Source: a bacterium (GTDB lineage: Bacteria > SZUA-182 > DTGQ01). Taken from it: a stretch of DNA of 26,785 nucleotides. Made by a program: the position numbers and the translations under genes. The notes beneath the pieces were generated by a model. The model did no database searches. It saw nothing but the letters and a program-made list of their open reading frames with translations, and was not told the origin of the DNA. Every line of letters begins with the position of its first letter. The first letter of the stretch is position 1. The DNA lies in the NCBI GenBank assembly GCA_040752695.1, contig JBFMGO010000085.1, positions 1 through 26,785 of the forward strand, written 5' to 3'. Below are positions 1-20,766 of this stretch, piece after piece.

Positions 1-1124
1 ATCTGTGGCAGCTTTATGCCGCTATTGTTGCAGCAGCTTATACCCGCGCTTTACTTGAGTCAATGCCTTCCCAGGAATCCAACGAGCATGAAGATATTGC
101 GGTCTACAACCAGCATAATGGAGGCCGCGAGAGATCCTTTGTAGATGAAATCTTCGCCAAAATGACCTGGCATCATCCCCTGATCCTCCTTGCCCAGGCG
201 GATATGGAACAGGAAAAGGTAATCGATGCCATTTTAGACAGGGCCAGGGAAAGCTTTGGAGCAAATAATACCTTTCGTTTTTCATTACCTTGCAGCTCGA
301 AAGCTGACCTTGAAACCTATTTTGCCTATGTTGGGAAAAGGTGTGGCTTCCCTCATTCTGTGACTGGACCCGTTCAACTCCAGGATGCCTTTACAGATCT
401 CATTTCAGCGGGGAAGCGATTATTTCTCCTTGTAGACGAGTTTGAAAACGGGCCAGAGGAAAGTTGCAGGGAATTGGCCGGCATCCTTCGAAACCTGAGC
501 GAAAAACATCATGACTATTTTAACATTGTTATGGCAGGGGGTGAAAAATTGGCTAATCTTAAATATCATCCCTCGCTAGAGCATTCACTGCTCAATAATG
601 CTGAAGTTATGGAGTGGCCTGAACTGAAGATTGAAGATGTCTTAGAAATACACCGCCTGCCTAACAATGGAGCCAGCGAAACACAGACCAGTACCAGTAA
701 TGGAACAGGCATTAATGATAATAGGACATGCATCAATAATAAAATAGACCTCAATGAGGCTAAGGCTGATTTCTTCCTTAAAATGAGCGGTGGACATCCG
801 CGCCTCCTCAGGTATTATCTGCAATTCTATAACCAACAGCCTGCCCTTAAAGAGAATGATTACTATCAAAAACTGCTTCAATATGACTTTCTCCGGCAAA
901 TTTTTCATCCATTTCTTAAGGACCGGAACAATGCTGACAGAATCCGTAAACTACTTGAAAAGGAAGAGGTCTGGCAGTACTATTTTCCTTATGTTGAAGA
1001 CCCTCTCATTCGAAAGTTATACTGGAAGAATCTAATTGTTAAGAAAATCGCTATAGGAGGAATGGTTCATTGGGTATGGCGCTGCGAGGCAATCCGTGAG
1101 GCGGGAAGACGGGTTTTGAGATGA
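1..1124 (+). CDS. Host P-loop NTPase-like protein (degenerate STAND/AAA type), probably 5'-truncated by the window edge
   Basis: Frame is open from base 3 through ATG63. Walker-B-like LFLLVDEFE, IVMAGG and SGGHPRLL (STAND-like GxP motif) are present; no intact Walker A is visible. Confidence 0.6.
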   Translation, partial: LWQLYAAIVAAAYTRALLESMPSQESNEHEDIAVYNQHNGGRERSFVDEIFAKMTWHHPLILLAQADMEQEKVIDAILDRARESFGANNTFRFSLPCSSKADLETYFAYVGKRCGFPHSVTGPVQLQDAFTDLISAGKRLFLLVDEFENGPEESCRELAGILRNLSEKHHDYFNIVMAGGEKLANLKYHPSLEHSLLNNAEVMEWPELKIEDVLEIHRLPNNGASETQTSTSNGTGINDNRTCINNKIDLNEAKADFFLKMSGGHPRLLRYYLQFYNQQPALKENDYYQKLLQYDFLRQIFHPFLKDRNNADRIRKLLEKEEVWQYYFPYVEDPLIRKLYWKNLIVKKIAIGGMVHWVWRCEAIREAGRRVLR

Positions 1125-2242
1125 AATACCCATGCGTCGAAGGGATGCAAAAGCGGGGGAGAATTCCACCCCTGCCATATTCTCATAAGGGGAGACGGAG
1201 GTATTTTCCGGCACAGGCAGGAAATTGGCTGATCGTTATATTCTGCCTTGTGCTTGTCTTGACAGGTACTGCCTGGGCTAACGATAATACGGCGTCTTCA
1301 TCCACATCCTCTTCCTCGACAGTCCTTGTACCTGAGGGTGAGATATTTCCTGAGTGGGAGAAGCTTCTCAAGAGCATTCCTAAACAAAATGGTTTTAAGG
1401 TTATTGCCTTCAGCCCGGATGGCGAAACCCTGGCCTCTGCCTCTCGTGATAACACCATACGCCTTTGGGATATTTCATCTGGCCGCCAGGTCAAAGTATT
1501 CGAGGGACATTTGGATGAAGTCAATTCAGTAGCTTTCAGCCCTGATGGCGAAACCCTGGCCTCTGCCTCTGGTAGTTCATTCAGTTCTGATAACACCATA
1601 CGCCTTTGGGAAATTGACTCTGGCCGCCAGGTCAAAGTATTTGAGGGGCATTCTAATTGGGTCAATTCAGTAGCTTTCAGCCCGGATGGCAAAATCCTGG
1701 CCTCTGCCTCTTTTGATAACACCATACGCCTTTGGGATATTTCATCTGGTTGCCAGGTCAAAGTATTTGAGGGGCATTCTGATTGGGTCAATTCAGTAGC
1801 TTTCGGCCCGAATGGTAAAACCCTTGCCACTGCCTCGTGGGATAAGATCGTGCGCCTTTGGGATATTTCATCTGGCCGCCAGGTCAAAGTGTTCGAGGGG
1901 CATTTGGATGAAGTCAATTCAGTAGCTTTCAGCCCTGATGGGAAAACCCTGGCCTCTGCCTCTGATGATAACACCGTTCGCCTTTGGGATATTGACTCTG
2001 GCCGCCAGGTCAAAGTGTTCGAGGGGCATTCTGCTCCAGTCTATTCAGTAGCATTCAGCCCGGCTGGAAAAACCCTGGCCTCTGCCTCTGGTAGTTCGTC
2101 CAGTTCTGATAACACCATACGCCTTTGGGATATTAGCGTTGGCCGCCAGGTCAAAGTATTTGAGGGGTATTCTGATTGGGTCAATTCAATAGCTTTCAGC
2201 CCGGATGGAAAAACCCTGGCCTCTGCCTCGTGGGATGGAACC
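1121..2242 (+). pseudogene. Host WD40-repeat protein with N-terminal hydrophobic segment, interrupted by the prophage insertion
   Basis: About seven GH..V.SVAFSPDGKTLASAS.D.TIRLWD repeats. The last repeat stops at ASASWDGT and the ORF ends in unrelated CQLSKC* read from the phage end (stop 2261-2263). Confidence 0.85.
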
Positions 2243-2292
2243 TGTCAATTGTCAAAATGCTAGTGCGAAAATTATCAAAATAGGTGAGAAAA
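2243..2292. repeat. Putative prophage right end with tandem transposase-binding-like sites
   Basis: Starts TGTC. AATTGTCAAAATGCTAGTGCGAAAA (2247-2271) and AATTATCAAAATAGGTGAGAAAA (2270-2292) are imperfect direct repeats about 23 bp apart, like Mu R1/R2. Confidence 0.7.
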
Positions 2293-9903: not shown

Positions 9904-10260
9904 TTATTTCTCTTTATTTTCCCGATCCTTATTGCTGTTTTTCCGTAAAAAGGTTTCCACGCGGCTTATCTTTCGTATGATGTCCACTTGTTCTTCAGCT
10001 TCGATATCCATAAGGTCCATGACTTTTCCCAAAAAGCCGTAATCAAGGTTTCCGCTCAGGCCGCATCTGGCCTGGGAGCACAGGTCGTATACCTCCTGGC
10101 ATAATTCGTTCGCTATCCAGAGCTGCGGAGGTTGGCGTTTACACCCCTTGCACGGAGGATTACGGCTATCTTTCCGGAATTTCTTCCGGCAGGGCTCACA
10201 GTAGGCGGGGTTTTCTCCGTCCCGGTCCGTGCGCCACTGCCAGAAGTCGATCAGTTTTTT
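9904..10260 (-). CDS. Tail assembly chaperone frameshift extension (gpGT-like), Cys-rich
   Basis: Reached by a -1 shift at A AAA AAC; reads KLIDFWQWR...CEPC...CKGC...LDYGFL. Confidence 0.75.
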   Translation of the reverse strand, partial: KKLIDFWQWRTDRDGENPAYCEPCRKKFRKDSRNPPCKGCKRQPPQLWIANELCQEVYDLCSQARCGLSGNLDYGFLGKVMDLMDIEAEEQVDIIRKISRVETFLRKNSNKDRENKEK

Positions 10261-10634
10261 ATCTCCTCCTCCATCGCCTGCGCTGCCTTGACTTGAGCAT
10301 CCAAACAGGCAGATGCGACCAGGTTGGTGAAAACGGGGAATTGTTCGACCAGCATCTTTTTGTTTTCTTCCGTGAACGGGATCTGCCTGCCCTCCTCGTC
10401 CTTGAGCTCCCAGCCGAGGCAGCAATCCATGAAGATCTTCGGCATGGCGATATCATGATCGAAGCTCCTGGAGTCGGTTTCCGCTTCCCTGCGAACCTTG
10501 CGAAGCTCGGTTCTGGTCAAGGGTTTGATCTTGACCCGGAATTTGAGCCCCTCGAATTCCGACCGTTCAAAAACCCTGTGGCTGCCGTCGATCCATACTC
10601 CATCCTTTTGATTCAATGCGAGCAGTAAATCCAT
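10251..10634 (-). CDS. Tail assembly chaperone (gpG-like)
   Basis: Between tail tube and tape measure; GW.LKDEEG..IPFTEEN; ends IKN* on a slippery site; GGAGG RBS. Confidence 0.8.
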   Translation of the reverse strand: MDLLLALNQKDGVWIDGSHRVFERSEFEGLKFRVKIKPLTRTELRKVRREAETDSRSFDHDIAMPKIFMDCCLGWELKDEEGRQIPFTEENKKMLVEQFPVFTNLVASACLDAQVKAAQAMEEEIKN

Positions 10635-14339: not shown

Positions 14340-15230
14340 TTATGTCAGCCAGGGAACTACCAGCAATTTCGCTGTGTCGCGCCAGGTATTGGTTGCTCCG
14401 GCCTGGTTCCTCTCAGTGAGCAGTATCTCTCGTGCATTAGCTTCGAGGGATGGCGGTACTACCAGGAGATCAGGGACGATGCCCAGGGGCATCCCATTAT
14501 CGTTGGTGAAGGCCATCATGGCAGACCTGGCTGCCGAATAGTGACCAGCGTCCAGATCGTTCTTGCTGGCATAGGCCAATTGCCAGAATCCATAACCGAC
14601 ATTACCACGGTAATCCACTCCATAGCGGTATTTCTTGCGCATGAACACGTTCTCATCCGTTATGGAATCCATGGATACAAACTGTGGAGACTGCCGTTCC
14701 TGGTAGATCAGCGGCTTGATCGACCTGCCGGTACACATCAGGTACCAGGCCGTCCCAGACCCGGAATCATAATTGCTGACCGTGCTGCTTCCCACCGGGT
14801 GATCGGTGTCGAAAAAGTACTGCCCATCGTAACAGGCGGTAGTAAATCCGGCAGCCAGCAGGGTGAAGATAAGATAATCAGGGTGGGTTTTTGCGCTTCT
14901 CCCCAGTTCCTGAATCGGAGAGCGATAGACACCAAGATTATCATCCATGATGTCGTTGCGGTCGATTTCGATCGTGCCTTCAAAATCCTTGTTCGTAATG
15001 CTGTAGCCGTGCAGCAGCAGGTTTTGCAGCACCCTGTCTCCGATCCATTCTCTCAGCATCGGGAATGCACCGAGCCAGGCATAATCTTGCGTCTTGCTGG
15101 TCGATGGTGCCAGGCTGGCCACTTGCGGCCAGTAGACCTGGGCGCTTTCGAGCGCCTGATTGAATAATAGCGAGTTGCTCTTATACAGCGAAGCCAACAT
15201 GGCCGCTGTAATGGTTCCTTTAACGATCAT
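14340..15230 (-). CDS. Major capsid protein (Mu gpT family)
   Basis: YAWLG.FP.LREWIGDR, NKDFE.TI.I.RNDI.DD, CYDGQYFFDTDHPV, GYGFWQLA. Confidence 0.95.
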   Translation of the reverse strand: MIVKGTITAAMLASLYKSNSLLFNQALESAQVYWPQVASLAPSTSKTQDYAWLGAFPMLREWIGDRVLQNLLLHGYSITNKDFEGTIEIDRNDIMDDNLGVYRSPIQELGRSAKTHPDYLIFTLLAAGFTTACYDGQYFFDTDHPVGSSTVSNYDSGSGTAWYLMCTGRSIKPLIYQERQSPQFVSMDSITDENVFMRKKYRYGVDYRGNVGYGFWQLAYASKNDLDAGHYSAARSAMMAFTNDNGMPLGIVPDLLVVPPSLEANAREILLTERNQAGATNTWRDTAKLLVVPWLT

Positions 15231-15750: not shown

Positions 15751-16386
15751 TCAGCCGACAATTTTTTGCGCTAAAAACTCCTTGAATTCTTCCTCGCTGA
15801 TACCCATCTGCTTCATGACGATGCGGTCGGTTTCCGTGATCTGCTCTTTTGCAGGGGGCTGATCAGGTCCGGCTCCTCCGATTTCCTTCATAGTCACTAC
15901 CACCGGGGCCTTTTCGACGAACACCTTGAATCCGGCGGGATCGGCCTTGGCGTACTCCGTAGCCCATTCTTTCTGCGCTGCCGTGATTTTGCCTGCCTTC
16001 ATGGCCTCGGTGACCAGGTCGTTTGCGTCTCTCTGCGCCAGTTTTTCTTTCATGGCCTGGAATTCAGCTACCGAAATTCCCGTTACCTGGGTCTGTTTCA
16101 ATGCGCGGATAGTGGCAATGGCATCTGATTTGCTAGCTGCCGCAGACAGACCCAGTTCTGACATGACTTCCTGACAGGCCACGGTTGAAGAAGCCTCCTT
16201 CAGGGCATTGATGGCTCCCATAACCTCCTGGGAGGTGGCCGTAGATGAAACATTCAGCGCGGTTGCCAGTTGCGACTTCAGGGCCTCGTGGCCAGCAGCT
16301 ATGTGCATCCTGGCAGACATGACCTCGATGGCCTTTTCCTTCGATGTGCCCTCAGGTAATCCCAGTAATGTCAAAAACTCTTTCAT
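15751..16386 (-). CDS. Probable internally initiated scaffolding protein (gpZ-like)
   Basis: In-frame ATG at 16386 (MKEFL) preceded by AAGGAAGAAGGT after a low-complexity linker, as in Mu I/Z. Confidence 0.6.
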   Translation of the reverse strand: MKEFLTLLGLPEGTSKEKAIEVMSARMHIAAGHEALKSQLATALNVSSTATSQEVMGAINALKEASSTVACQEVMSELGLSAAASKSDAIATIRALKQTQVTGISVAEFQAMKEKLAQRDANDLVTEAMKAGKITAAQKEWATEYAKADPAGFKVFVEKAPVVVTMKEIGGAGPDQPPAKEQITETDRIVMKQMGISEEEFKEFLAQKIVG

Positions 16387-16971
16387 ACCTTCTTCCTTTC
16401 CGGTGAATGAATCATGATCTCCTTCACCTGATTTTTTGATATCGTTCGCACCGGCATCTTTTGCAAGGCCAGAACTGACTGCCCTTGTTTCAAATGGCTG
16501 GTTGGACGATGCTGAAGATTGTGCCTCCAGTGCTTTCATAACCAATGGCGTCAGGTTATGGCCCTTTGGCAGGTTAGTAAGCGCTATACTCTGGATGTTC
16601 ACCAGATGACGTTTCTTATCCAGCCCGACGACCGGGGAGAAATACCGGTATTCCCGGTTCTTGATAAATTCTTTTGCTTTCTCTGTCCAGTCAACCCGGC
16701 AGGCCAGGCCGCTGCCGTTATTGAAAAACCCCTTGATCCACCCGGCAGCCGGAGCTATGCCTCCGGTCAGAGTCTGGTGTTCGTAATCGATAACTCCATC
16801 CCTGCCTTTTGCCTGGTGATCTGCTCTGACCGATTCGATAGATGCAGCATCCACCGTAAAGGGCTCCATCCCGGTGCCTGTGACAGTGCCAAAGGGGAAA
16901 ATGAGAAATTCACCGGGGGCCTCCGGGGAGGCATCCATAATTACCGTAAAATACTCGTGTTCTCCACTCAT
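15751..16971 (-). CDS. Prohead protease I with C-terminal scaffold (Mu gpI/gpZ)
   Basis: IDYEHQT...APAAGWI, VDWT..A...I...EYRYFSPV, ALTNLP, GKITAAQKEWA. Confidence 0.92.
   Translation of the reverse strand: MSGEHEYFTVIMDASPEAPGEFLIFPFGTVTGTGMEPFTVDAASIESVRADHQAKGRDGVIDYEHQTLTGGIAPAAGWIKGFFNNGSGLACRVDWTEKAKEFIKNREYRYFSPVVGLDKKRHLVNIQSIALTNLPKGHNLTPLVMKALEAQSSASSNQPFETRAVSSGLAKDAGANDIKKSGEGDHDSFTGKEEGMKEFLTLLGLPEGTSKEKAIEVMSARMHIAAGHEALKSQLATALNVSSTATSQEVMGAINALKEASSTVACQEVMSELGLSAAASKSDAIATIRALKQTQVTGISVAEFQAMKEKLAQRDANDLVTEAMKAGKITAAQKEWATEYAKADPAGFKVFVEKAPVVVTMKEIGGAGPDQPPAKEQITETDRIVMKQMGISEEEFKEFLAQKIVG
16481..16516 (-). promoter_or_regulatory. Repeated late-region motif, copy inside the protease gene
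   Basis: Plus strand GCCCTT-N16-TGGACGATGCTGAA. Confidence 0.6.
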
Positions 16972-17090: not shown

Positions 17091-17200
17091 AATAACCTGT
17101 TTTTGTGTTAACCATATAGGAACCATGCTCCGCGCTACTGTAAATGCTTTTTCCCTTCTCTCGTGCGCGTTTTCCCTTCTGTTTTGAATATGGCTGCGGC

Positions 17201-17230
17201 TTGACAAGGCTTATTGCGAATGTGTATAGT
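17201..17230 (+). promoter_or_regulatory. Sigma70-like promoter antisense to the late operon
   Basis: TTGACA-N18-TATAGT. Confidence 0.55.
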
Positions 17231-17341
17231 AAAAACGGTCCAGAAATGAGGAGAACTATACCTTCGCATTTTTAAACATTGCGAAACTATTATTATTTCC
17301 AGACACTTAATAAAAAGTGCAAAAGCATAAAGGAGAAGATA

Positions 17342-17632
17342 ATGGACAGAAGCAAGATTCCTTTTTATGCTTCTCAAAAAGCTCAAAGCTTCATCAATTT
17401 TGAGTTGAGCACATACGAGAAGGAAAACATCACTACCGATCCAGGCATGGTCGAGCATCTCATGAAATCCGGCTATACCGTAGATGATATTGGGTTGCTC
17501 GATGCCGTAAACATTCTCTGTGCTCATAATGTCGGCAAGGCCAGACAGGCAGCCAGATCGATCCAGCATCAAAGTGCCAGGCAATCCGCCACGCGTTCCA
17601 TTCTTTGTTTTGAAGATCGCTGTATCCGCTGA
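17342..17632 (+). CDS. Hypothetical protein (96 aa), possible moron; coding strand ambiguous
   Basis: AAGGAG RBS before ATG17342 and an upstream promoter; codon-aligned with the antisense ORF 17135-17659. Confidence 0.45.
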   Translation: MDRSKIPFYASQKAQSFINFELSTYEKENITTDPGMVEHLMKSGYTVDDIGLLDAVNILCAHNVGKARQAARSIQHQSARQSATRSILCFEDRCIR

Positions 17633-17659
17633 TATTTTTGTCATCGGCCCATCATGCAT

Positions 17660-19129
17660 TTAAAGTATTTTCCCTTTATCTTTGCCCAATGCTTTCATAT
17701 GCTGACCGATAACATCCAGCCATTGTTCACATTTTTCCGAAACATTCATGCCTGTTCCTAATTTATCAGCCGGTAATGTCACACCGGGTACTAATTCCTG
17801 AATTTTATCCCGTATCAGCTTTTCATATTGGTCAGGATCATGCGACAGGTTTAAATTCCAGACCAGGTCAGATAACTGCTGCCGGTCCATACCGGCAGAT
17901 TCCATAAGCCGCATGAAATTTTTCACCATAGGCTGATAAAGGGAATCTCTTACCTGGAAAATCTGCTCCGCATATTGATCAACATCTTGCAGGTTCATGG
18001 CCTTACAAAAATCGGGGAAGAAAAACCGCTCCCAGACTTCGTTCACGATCTGGGACAGATTGCGGTAACTGGTGTCATTTCTGTCGTTATATCGCATGGT
18101 ATCGATCTGCACGCCCAGGCTATGACCGAATTCATGGCAGAGTGTAGCCAATGAATCCGCCTGCTCAAGCGAGGTGATCTTGCCTTCTTTCACTGCGGTT
18201 TCGACTTGGATATACCGGATGGGGTTTAATTTGATAATGCCATTAACCTGATCCCACTTGCCGTTAGCATCTGACTCGAACCCGAACTTTTTCACCGGTA
18301 CGGCATCCACCCCCATCAGCTTGAAATTTTCCTGCAAGCCGTTGAGCCGGTCATTCAACTGGCCCATGGTGCGCACCGGGCCGAACCGCTGTTCATAAGC
18401 CCGCTCGAAGAGCTTCCGCTCCTCGTCGGAGAGTTTGCTCAGGTCAGGCTCCCAGGCCACTTTCCCCGGATTGACTGCAAACCCTTCAGGCGGCATGAGC
18501 TTTTCCGGTTCGCTGGAAACGCTTCCATCCGGCAGGACCGGATAATATTCTGTCCCGGTGAGATCTTCGGTCAACGGTGTGATTCCTTCTTCTTCCAACT
18601 CGTCACGCGAGAGGTCATCCACTCCGGATCTTCACCCAAAATGATTAGGCGGGTAATACTTATCCCAGAATGGATGATCGTAACGGTAACATACGGCCGG
18701 TCTGCTTCCGTGTCCGCCCAGTTCGTAGCATAGAGGGGTGGTCCCCGAATCATCAATCGAGTTGTACACCCAAAAGGGCCGCAATTCGGCCCGCTCCGTC
18801 TGTTTCGCATAACGACCCACGTTGTAGGAGGTCTGGATATTCTGACGAAACACGATTTCAATATGACGAGGATTCGCCGGAGCATACCCCGAATTACGAA
18901 GAATGTCATTGAACGCCTCCTGGAACCCTTTCAGGGTCCCTCCATCGGTCAGCACTTTTTCAACCTCTGCGTGCAGGTCTTTCAGAACCCGCAGGGACGT
19001 GACATGAGACACGGAAAATGCCTTCACCCTGGCTTCGGCAGAAAGCCGATAGAATTTGTCCGGATGCAGGATCTCCTTGCCTGCAAAAAACCTGATAGCT
19101 TCCGTGAAGGCTCCCTTGTTACTCATCAC
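17660..19129 (-). CDS. MuF head morphogenesis protein with C-terminal HExxH domain; in-frame TGA at 18632-18634 (candidate selenocysteine)
   Basis: AFSVSHV, IVFRQNIQTSYNVGRY, D..T...C, HPFWDKYYPPNHFG*RSGV, PEGFAVNPGK, LCHEFGH. The two listed ORFs are in the same frame (489 aa if read through). Confidence 0.85.
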
Positions 19130-20766
19130 TTCACCGTTCTCCGTCCATACAATTCGGCCAGCAGCATACCCCTGGCAATCAGCAGTTCCATATCATCAGA
19201 AGCAATATCGCTGAATGCCAGATAGATCCGGTCTCTGATCTGGTCCAGAGAACCAGCACTCATCACGATGTTCGTAAGCTTCGCCTCCATATCAGGATAA
19301 AGCTTTGCGTACTCCTTCAGCAGGCTCCCGCCGATGTCCTCCACGCCCTGCTGCCTGGGGGAGAAACGACCAGAGTGCTCTGATATGATAGTCCCTTGTG
19401 CCATCTGTGACATGGCCACATAGGTACCGTCCGCATCCTGCTTCATGAGCACTGGTGTCCGTCCAGGAAGGATGACGATCTGTTCGTCTTTGGCAGGTTC
19501 CGGCAGGTTGTATTTTTGGCGGAAGTAGTTCACTCCGATCGGGACTCCGGTTTCCACCAGGGTTTTATCCCGCTGTGCTTCGGCAATGAGGTCTTCCGCC
19601 GGCTCGTAAGCGGTTTTATATCGCGGATAGACTGCCTGCGGTCCGAAGTTAAAGATAACGAGCGGGACCACGAGCTGCTGGGTGATGGTCTTGTCGAGGG
19701 CAATGCAATCCGCTTCGAGCAGATCCTGCCGAACTTTATCATGCACCTGAGCAGCGGCCCGCGATCCCTCTTTAACCTCTGTGGTCAGATTCTGACCCAG
19801 GATGACAATCGAAATTTCCTGGTTGACCATATCGATAAAGGTCTTATAGACATCGCCATTGGCCGCACCATTCAACGCGGAGACGAACTGGAGCTCCGTC
19901 GATTTGGAAATGATGCCTGCTCCGTCAGCGCCAATGGACTGCACTGCTGTTCTCAGAGCAGCCCGGTCTGCCTTCGTGGCCGAAGGATCGTATTTACCCA
20001 GACGCAATGGCATTCCGTAGACCTCGCAGAACCGTATCCAGTCCTTGATATTGTAGGACTTGAACAGATAGAACCAGGCCAGGGTACGCAATAATCCTGC
20101 CCTGGCAGGATATCCTGATCTGCCTTTATATTGGTGGATGATAAACTTGGCCGGATAATTGGCCAGAGACTCACCCTTACTCGGCTCTGCATCGGTGATC
20201 AGCCGCAACTCCGTCTGAGTGTCATTCCAAACGAAGCGCTTCTGATGTCTCCATTTGATCGCTGCAATGACGTTTCTACCATCCCGGATATCCCACATAA
20301 CCTCGACTACAGCATACCCTTTGCCTATGGCGTCGAGCAGATCAAGCTGCGCTTCCTGAAAATTGGATATACCAGACATTACTTCTTTAACGAATTCGGC
20401 CTGAGCGACTGAATTCCTGTCCTGCTCGTCCGCCGGGATAATGTCCCAGTCCAGGCCGATTACGGCCTGTTTGCGAGTCTGTAAACAGGAGAAAATGCGC
20501 GTGTCCTTTTCTTCGATTTCCTCGAACAGCTCCATCTGACGGTGCATGATTCCGGCATCCGCCTCTTTGAGGATGCTGGCCAGTTGTGTGACAGTCAGCC
20601 CCTGGCTGGGATATTCAGAATACACATCCTGGAGCCTGACCACCCCCACCTCTTCCATATCCGGCTTCACCGGCAGGTAGATTTTGTTGCCGTTGGCATC
20701 GTAAATGTATTTTCGTTCGATTGAACTCTGATATGGGTTCTTTACCCTATCTTGCTGGTCTGGCAT
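19126..20766 (-). CDS. Portal protein (Mu gp29 / DUF935)
   Basis: ELFEEIEEKD, LLDAIGKGY, GLLRTLAW.YLFK, FCEVYGMPLRLGKY, ILGQNLTTE. Confidence 0.95.
   Translation of the reverse strand: MPDQQDRVKNPYQSSIERKYIYDANGNKIYLPVKPDMEEVGVVRLQDVYSEYPSQGLTVTQLASILKEADAGIMHRQMELFEEIEEKDTRIFSCLQTRKQAVIGLDWDIIPADEQDRNSVAQAEFVKEVMSGISNFQEAQLDLLDAIGKGYAVVEVMWDIRDGRNVIAAIKWRHQKRFVWNDTQTELRLITDAEPSKGESLANYPAKFIIHQYKGRSGYPARAGLLRTLAWFYLFKSYNIKDWIRFCEVYGMPLRLGKYDPSATKADRAALRTAVQSIGADGAGIISKSTELQFVSALNGAANGDVYKTFIDMVNQEISIVILGQNLTTEVKEGSRAAAQVHDKVRQDLLEADCIALDKTITQQLVVPLVIFNFGPQAVYPRYKTAYEPAEDLIAEAQRDKTLVETGVPIGVNYFRQKYNLPEPAKDEQIVILPGRTPVLMKQDADGTYVAMSQMAQGTIISEHSGRFSPRQQGVEDIGGSLLKEYAKLYPDMEAKLTNIVMSAGSLDQIRDRIYLAFSDIASDDMELLIARGMLLAELYGRRTVK

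Follow-up and report, generated by a model that had tools for sequence, protein, structure and literature searches.

An in-frame UGA at the conserved cysteine of a prophage MuF head protein as a candidate selenocysteine codon

A MuF gene divided by one in-frame UGA

We analysed a contig of 26.8 kb (JBFMGO010000085.1, C85) over its entire length, hereafter the window. It belongs to a 6.05-Mb metagenome-assembled genome (MAG; G000) of 239 contigs. The minus strand carries, from 3.2 to 26.7 kb of the window, the late region of a Mu-like prophage. We concentrated on its gene for a MuF/gp30-type minor head protein (17660..19129, minus strand), which lies in the head module, adjoins the portal gene and has a UGA codon within its reading frame. 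With readthrough of this UGA, the gene comprises 489 codons followed by TAA. In gene calls it appears instead as a 165-aa open reading frame (ORF; 18632-19129) and a 320-aa ORF (17660-18622). These share one frame, are separated by TGA AGA TCC GGA, and are one MuF gene.

Translation starts either at GTG 19129 or at ATG 19126, the latter overlapping the TGA of the portal gene. The N-terminal part (18635..19129, minus strand) encodes residues 1-165, ends with PPNHFG and matches PF04233 with 38.7 bits (cut-off 29.6, residues 52-168). The UGA itself (18632..18634, minus strand) is a candidate selenocysteine (Sec) codon. It stands for residue 166, the first cysteine of the CR[C/S] motif, in a column where the relatives have Cys. 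The minus strand reads CCG CCT AAT CAT TTT GGG TGA AGA TCC GGA GTG at this site (PPNHFG*RSGV), exactly as given in the first-pass annotation of this DNA, with the TGA at 18634-18632. The downstream part (17660..18631, minus strand) has 323 codons and a TAA (17662-17660). It encodes the conserved MuF tail and a C-terminal alpha-helical domain, with V170, the PEGFAVNPGK motif (18490-18461) and an HEFGH motif (18136-18122). The long open frame with PEGFAVNPGK, also pointed out in the first-pass annotation, is therefore there as described.

Family profiles treat the two ORFs as one protein. The match to the profile phrog_220 ('minor head protein and DNA pilot') runs from residue 7 to residue 312 and bridges the TGA (E-value 3.4e-53); the narrower profile TIGR01641 scores 26.9, below its cut-off of 39.65. 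We aligned 126 MuF domains and found C166 and R167 to be invariant, which bears out the earlier claim that the UGA occupies a conserved MuF cysteine. The next cysteine, C168, is conserved in at least 90% of the aligned domains, and the clade of the window has Ser there. The conserved columns go on past the TGA (V170, G216 and N220, at least 90% each). Hence, a product of 165 residues would miss conserved parts of the family.

The TGA codon is an ordinary stop in the rest of this phage, as had been noted before. Among the 27 minus-strand ORFs of the window, 13 end with TGA (the N-terminal piece of MuF included), 12 with TAA and 2 with TAG. TGA is thus the true end of 12 other prophage genes, including the portal gene, where it overlaps the start of MuF. 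Given these 12 genes, and given that TGA is also the true stop of three other MuF genes that have an internal TGA, we rejected a global reassignment of the codon.

The closest relatives provide the Cys counterpart of this gene. A collinear prophage is present in G002, a MAG of the same genus, and its MuF orthologue, 72% identical, is a single ORF of 486 aa with PPNHFGCRSGV and a TGC at the site of the TGA. The N-terminal part of the window gene is 84% identical to this orthologue, and the downstream part has a dN/dS of ~0.14 relative to it. The UGA column is Cys in all eight closest relatives (31-72% identity), i.e. in seven full-length relatives at 52-72% and in a paralogue at 31% encoded on C189, another contig of this MAG. 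The first-pass annotation had considered that uniform cysteine among close homologues would speak against its reading. This is indeed the pattern in these eight proteins, but TGA recurs at this column in the wider family.

UGA at the cysteine motif across the MuF family

We drew on metagenomes, on genomes and on viral contigs to compile 245 further MuF loci, which give 56,700 aligned codons. The sole stop codon in their conserved core is a TGA at this very column, in a metagenomic relative of 41% identity (L030). Some of the retrieval patterns for this sample included the cysteine, which biases it towards Cys forms. An additional 27 loci, retrieved with patterns lacking the cysteine while seeking the DNA of the protein P0156 (described below), all have Cys and are all at most 37% identical to that protein.

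We scanned 2.9 million viral contigs for the pattern YPPNG..TGA-R and obtained 33 hits, of which 12 are MuF genes by tblastn (E 1e-18 to 1e-54), 11 of them distinct, and one more is probable. When TGA was placed at the second cysteine of CRC, two of three hits in the viral contigs were MuF. In one viral contig (L280, motif at ~901-930) both cysteines of CRC are TGA (U-R-U), and a 7-bp hairpin with loop GGA follows. Altogether, the distinct viral and metagenomic loci have TGA at the first cysteine in 12 cases, at the second in two and at both in one. None of them belongs to the window's own clade (at least 52% identity). Control scans of the viral contigs retrieved no MuF gene: none of 11 hits with TAA at the Cys column, none of five with TAG, and not the single hit with TGA in place of the conserved Trp that lies five codons upstream. 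The pattern YPPNH..TGA-R gave 10 hits in the viral contigs with no MuF among them, and thus no second PPNH-type case at the DNA level.

Protein data add cases of the same kind. We used the 165-aa piece as a phmmer query against 1.84 billion cluster representatives. Four of the best 150 representatives end exactly at a cysteine of CRC, three at the first and one at the second; two others of the 150 appear frameshifted. One of the four, P0156 (with a second member, P0171), is of the PPNHFN type, as the window protein, and comes from contigs of 28 and 339 kb. The stop codons of P0021, P0033, P0142 and P0156 are known from the protein ends only, and P0142, from a contig of 712 nt, may end at the contig edge.

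The frames of the TGA forms remain open for 54 to more than 300 codons past the TGA, and in three of these genes the true stop is again a TGA. When TGA forms are compared in pairs, the dN/dS after the TGA is ~0.26-0.30, similar to that before it. Judging from these ratios, the frames downstream of the TGAs are under purifying selection. A FastTree phylogeny built from 249 MuF domains intersperses its 15 TGA forms with Cys forms (13 parsimony changes); three TGA forms make up one all-TGA clade (support 0.95). The recurrence of TGA in independent homologues with intact downstream coding, which the first-pass annotation had proposed to look for, is therefore found in many lineages. From these comparisons, MuF is very probably a Cys/Sec family, of which the window copy would be one member.

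A UGA might also be functional at this position and not encode selenocysteine, either because a near-cognate tRNA (Trp or Cys) leaks through it or because the gene is split and restarts at GTG 18622. This GTG follows the UGA by 9 nt (4 codons). A low-level leak might suffice for MuF, a virion protein of low copy number, and the weakness of the window's hairpin (described below) would also fit. Yet, the GTG is the codon of the conserved Val170 and is present in Cys forms, and GGAG directly abuts it, with no spacer. At the corresponding position, +4, 6 of the 13 first-Cys TGA forms have GTA, GTC or ATC, none of them a start codon, so translation restart is not a general explanation. Moreover, a split gene could use any stop at any site of the linker, yet we found only TGA and only at the two cysteines. 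A Trp would hardly be functional in place of an invariant Cys, and the enrichment of G[GU]-loop hairpins after the TGAs points to SelB. We consider this explanation very unlikely.

The downstream hairpin, the host and the rest of the prophage

The first-pass annotation had described a hairpin shortly after the UGA, and its string, its coordinates and its fold are correct. The sequence CUCUCGCGUGACGAG at 18613-18599 folds as CUCG/CGAG with loop CGUGA: the stem 18611-18608 pairs with 18602-18599, and the loop is at 18607-18603. An outer CC/GG extends this hairpin, which resembles a selenocysteine insertion sequence (SECIS), to 18614-18595. The whole element (18595..18614, minus strand) is CC.CUCG[CGUGA]CGAG..GG, with a loop that starts 24 nt after the UGA. 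We compared it with the bacterial SECIS (bSECIS) model, which has a loop of 3-9 nt, an upper stem of 4-16 bp, a G at loop position 1 or 2, a distance of 16-37 nt from the UGA to the loop, and a minimum free energy (MFE) of at most -7.5 kcal/mol (PMC13188914, Fig. 2 legend). In our own implementation of this published model, the hairpin agrees with criteria (i)-(iii), having a loop of 5 nt, a stem of 4 bp and a spacing of 24 nt. A scoring of the kind proposed by the first-pass annotation thus came out in favour of the loop, the stem, the position of the G and the spacing, but against the energy, as detailed below.

Hairpins of this type are more frequent after the TGA than after the Cys codon. 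With the loop specified as G[GU], the bSECIS model is matched by 9 of 15 TGA forms (window excluded, as in the two following counts) and by 38 of 244 Cys forms (p=2e-4). When the energy limit is relaxed to that of the window hairpin (-5.3), the fractions become 11/15 and 45/244 (p=1.4e-5). When the loop has to lie 22-26 nt after the codon, they are 8/13 and 12/244 (p=3e-7), or p = 4e-5 with a range of 20-30 nt. These p-values overstate the effect, since related sequences count as independent in the Fisher tests and since we settled on 22-26 nt post hoc. The stems of the TGA forms lie mostly in the conserved Leu-Ser codons and the loop in the next codon. The window hairpin is of this same class, and its loop, CGUGA, is identical to that of the TGA form L283. 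We dropped a common-register alignment of the hairpins for covariation, as the stems shift by 1-2 nt between lineages while the codons stay fixed.

The comparison of sister genes is more direct. Where the window has CTC TCG CGT GAC GAG, the Cys orthologue has CTA AGT GAT GAC GAC, and no candidate hairpin is found in this orthologue (L022). The difference consists of a switch to the other family of Ser codons (AGT to TCG), a synonymous Leu change (CTA to CTC) and an Arg where the seven closest full-length relatives all have Asp or Glu. A comparable Ser switch, from AGC to UCC, sets the TGA forms L283 and L303 (CTG TCC GTG ... CAG) apart from their nearest Cys forms L031 (CTG AGC GAC ...) and L033 (CTC AGC GAA ...). 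Similarly, L299 has CAC CGG TCG GTG (loop GGUC) and L304 has CAC AGG TTT GTG (loop GGUU), where the nearest Cys forms have CAC AAA TAC GTG. These sister comparisons point to selection acting on the RNA.

The host is able to decode Sec. The first-pass annotation had asked for selA, selB, selC and selD, and all of them are in the MAG. There is a selA (535.8 bits), two selB above the curated cut-off, one of them adjoining a tRNA-Sec, and two tRNA-Sec (69.9 and 58.9 bits) with anticodon TCA according to ARAGORN. The selD gene has itself one in-frame TGA at the canonical site. Four fdhA-like genes also have an in-frame TGA, one per gene, and after it a hairpin whose loop is GGUCU, GGC or GGG. In G000, selB-selA are at C80:2554-5909, the second selB-like ORF with a tRNA-Sec at C9:23157-25609, and the second tRNA-Sec at C23:23986-24079. 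G002 likewise has two selB above the cut-off, in a phylum sample that is small (20 species genomes). There might be two parallel Sec-decoding sets reading different SECIS classes. The assignment of the prophage to this host relies on MAG binning, on the related prophage in the second MAG of the genus, on paralogues that the WD40 gene of the left flank has elsewhere in the MAG, and on a tetranucleotide correlation (r=0.92) that is low, yet within the range of the contigs of the MAG.

The rest of the prophage is well preserved. According to Pfam and PHROG profiles, the head module has the order small and large terminase, Mu portal, MuF, gpI protease and gpT capsid. The Mu-type portal gene (19126..20766, minus strand; PF06074, E 8.9e-108) is directly upstream of MuF and marks the module. 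The Mu gpI-type head protease/scaffold gene (15751..16971, minus strand; PF10123, E 1.6e-69) is downstream, followed by the gpT capsid gene (14340-15230, minus strand). Connector, tail and tail-fibre genes come after the latter, with an amidase and an anti-repressor at the right end. The prophage is collinear with that of G002 from 3215 to 26690, and its real (minus-strand) genes contain no internal stops, the MuF UGA aside.

We made further observations in the prophage and its surroundings. Between MuF and the protease, a plus-strand ORF of 117 aa (17279-17632) is kept in G002 with 57% identity and no stops. The opposite minus-strand ORF of 174 aa (17135-17659) has only 35% identity to G002 and is therefore less conserved. 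This suggests a small opposite-strand gene inside the head module at 17279-17632, whose product had no match in Pfam and PHROG searches. Upstream of an 854-aa tape-measure-like gene, two minus-strand ORFs overlap (10251-10634 and 9904-10425), and the first of them weakly matches tail assembly chaperone and tape-measure PHROGs. The region 9904-10634 has the appearance of the tail chaperone pair that is usually expressed by programmed frameshifting. On the left flank of the window (63-2263, plus strand), a gene for a protein of 353 aa that weakly matches AAA_22 is translationally coupled to one for a WD40 protein with seven blades. The latter has paralogues elsewhere in the MAG, and the two could be a STAND-like NTPase/WD40 pair. 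Other contigs of the MAG carry a second MuF gene (C189:1352-2593; the 31% paralogue in the Cys form, with the same type of C-terminal domain) and a D12 methyltransferase gene with 75% identity to the one in the prophage (C92:5308-6060). These suggest that the host has one or more additional Mu-like prophages.

The selenocysteine reading and known systems

Taken together, we estimate at about 0.7 the probability that the UGA of the window's MuF copy is read as selenocysteine, given what the sequences tell. The codon is the right one, the host is competent, a hairpin of the family type is present here and absent in the Cys sister, and the prophage is otherwise intact. The lack of a Sec machinery in the host, which the first-pass annotation saw as a way to dismiss the idea, is not what we found (the MAG has selA, selB, selD and tRNA-Sec). 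Its broader inference of a virion protein using Sec via the SelB of the host gains support from the comparison of relatives.

Several results weigh against this reading. The TGA is unique in its own clade and differs from TGC by a single transversion, as a recent nonsense mutation would look. The UGA base is known from the 239-contig MAG assembly alone. We searched close relatives at the protein level for further N- or C-terminal pieces, and those of the window were the only ones to come up. The GTG four codons after the UGA may allow reinitiation in the window copy. The hairpin is weak: its 4-bp form has -3.0 kcal/mol (z 0.25), and the extended form has -5.3 kcal/mol (z -0.47), with 60 of 200 shuffles folding at least as well. 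It therefore fails criterion (iv) of the bSECIS model (-5.3 vs an MFE of at most -7.5 kcal/mol). According to BSepDB, 87.4% of its entries have a canonical SECIS. The 60 nt after the UGA fold even worse than shuffles (z +1.36). A search of Rfam gave no SECIS family match, with two chance-level rows only. The energy of the best generic hairpin is alike in TGA and Cys forms (-12.5 vs -12.3 kcal/mol, p=0.57), and we discarded it as a discriminator. In favour of the reading, however, the hairpin of the host's own selD is equally weak (-5.9 kcal/mol, range -5.9 to -6.8, loop CGGGU) and also fails the energy criterion in our implementation.

The main rival explanation is a simple accident. A recent TGC to TGA nonsense mutation, or a sequencing or assembly error, would have broken one MuF copy, with a coincidental hairpin and a downstream frame that has not yet decayed. 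The eight Cys relatives, the TGC of the orthologue and a hairpin no more stable than shuffles are in line with such an accident. The 45 of 244 Cys forms (~18%) mentioned above have an equally good or better hairpin 16-37 nt downstream. There are indeed broken MuF genes, as indicated by the two representatives that look frameshifted and by L024, which has two stops. Yet, the 245 loci have no chance stop in the core outside the Cys column, in spite of 56,700 codons, and TGA is found at this column in many lineages. The hairpin of the window lies in the same codons as those of other TGA forms (a placement seen in 5% of Cys forms), via synonymous changes that are absent from the orthologue. Every other shared gene of the prophage is intact and the host is able to decode Sec. 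An accident of this sort is thus unlikely.

If the UGA is decoded as selenocysteine, the analogy with bacterial selenoprotein genes suggests the following sequence of events. During late prophage expression, SelB of the host, carrying Sec-tRNA(Sec), would bind the hairpin of the mRNA ~24 nt after the UGA, through its CGUGA loop. We infer that SelB reads this weak hairpin. It would deliver Sec, and the ribosome would proceed for 323 more codons. The full-length product would join the head-targeting MuF domain, the conserved tail and the C-terminal HEFGH (zincin-like) domain. If recoding fails, for lack of selenium or of a compatible SelB, a stub of 165 residues would result, without CR[C/S] and all that lies beyond it.

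The C-terminal domain (residues ~250-489, 17660-18400) is modelled with a pLDDT of ~90, and its HEFGH motif is kept in most relatives. The same type of domain (WHEI[LT]HN) also follows MuF in the TGA form L300 and in the C189 paralogue. Searches of Pfam and NCBIfam gave no family match for it, a sequence search of the PDB returned non-significant rows only (E 0.07 or worse), and the best rows of Foldseek (DPP III, MATCAP and collagenase, E 0.2-0.6) are also non-significant. In a full-length model from nine sequences the MuF part is poor (pLDDT below 50). A model of the MuF domain from 126 sequences reaches a pLDDT of 91.6; Foldseek found nothing at E <= 0.001 for it, and VIA-align matched its N-terminal helices only, with Z <= 5.8, within noise. 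Since Sec can replace either or both of the cysteines of CRC, and since the clade of the window keeps only the first, the family comparison suggests that the (seleno)cysteine has a redox, nucleophilic or otherwise reactive role that is not purely structural.

More generally, MuF may be a widespread and previously unlisted Cys/Sec family of phages, with a redox or nucleophilic CRC in which Sec can take either or both positions, and with phages of the UGA form making complete MuF, and hence packaging its C-terminal cargo domain, only in Sec-decoding hosts supplied with selenium. We give even odds to this broader proposal as a whole. If true, a structural protein of bacteriophages is a selenoprotein, and the invariant cysteine of a ubiquitous head protein has a chemically active role. 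The completion of virions would then be tied to the Sec machinery and the selenium of the host, so that the Sec trait and the selenium supply would determine host range and productivity in phages with the UGA form. It would also account for a class of MuF genes annotated as 'split' or 'truncated' in the records of phages and prophages, and extend the known range of bacterial SECIS to short, weak hairpins with CGUGA, GGUC or CGGGC loops. Unlike the free phage contigs, the window comes with a host genome that encodes selA, selB, selC, selD and selenoprotein genes of its own. This prophage would be the first case of a UGA-form MuF with an identified Sec-competent host.

We found no report of a bacteriophage selenoprotein in the open-access literature (PMC papers and bioRxiv). 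No open-access paper combined 'selenocysteine' with 'minor head protein', and the one combining it with 'head morphogenesis' concerns integration at selC. There is no mention of phages, capsids or MuF in the accessible parts of the 2026 review of prokaryotic selenoproteomes, in the main text and supplement of BSepDB, or in deep-Sep, where the word 'head' refers only to the attention heads of a neural network.

Among known systems, the closest are the selenoprotein genes of bacteria, whose prototype is fdhF of E. coli. As in these genes, the UGA of the window is aligned with the Cys of homologues, other homologues have TGA, and the host has selA, selB, selC and selD. A small hairpin lies 3' of the UGA, 24 nt away, with G then U at loop positions 2-3. 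The differences are that the window gene encodes a phage virion protein and not a cellular oxidoreductase, and that its hairpin is below the energy cut-off of the model (-5.3 vs -7.5 kcal/mol).

Viruses of eukaryotes also have selenoproteins, such as the glutathione peroxidase homologues of poxviruses, which are captured antioxidant enzymes of the host with a SECIS in the 3'-UTR. They share with the window gene the dependence on the Sec machinery of the host, but the latter encodes a structural protein of a phage and has a bacterial hairpin within the ORF. Some phages reassign stop codons genome-wide, reading TGA or TAG as sense. They too have in-frame stops in late or structural genes, but the recoding in the window would be specific to one site.

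The gene is otherwise a typical member of the group of Mu gp30 (F) and SPP1 gp7 (PF04233, phrog_220). It has their domain, the position between portal and protease, the PPNxxxCR[C/S] motif and an additional C-terminal domain. It differs in that the Cys of the motif is UGA and in that its clade has Ser for the second Cys. The MuF genes of Mu, D108, BcepMu, SuMu, FP_Mushu and the others among the best 40 of 400 GenBank phage matches are annotated as single genes (according to the annotation, not the codons). In the accessible text of the published work, MuF is described as a head component (PMC5512222) and its domains as head-targeting carriers of injected C-terminal effectors (PMC5512222, PMC9503650). 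The window protein resembles these MuF-fused effectors, polymorphic toxins and polyvalent proteins in having a MuF domain followed by a variable, enzymatic-looking C-terminal domain, which by analogy with the accessible descriptions would be packaged and injected; unlike them, its HEFGH domain has no significant match to a family or fold. The accessible text of these papers (PMC5512222, PMC9503650) describes no recoding signal between carrier and cargo. In the window, if the UGA is indeed decoded as selenocysteine, recoding at this codon would decide whether the MuF carrier and its cargo are joined.

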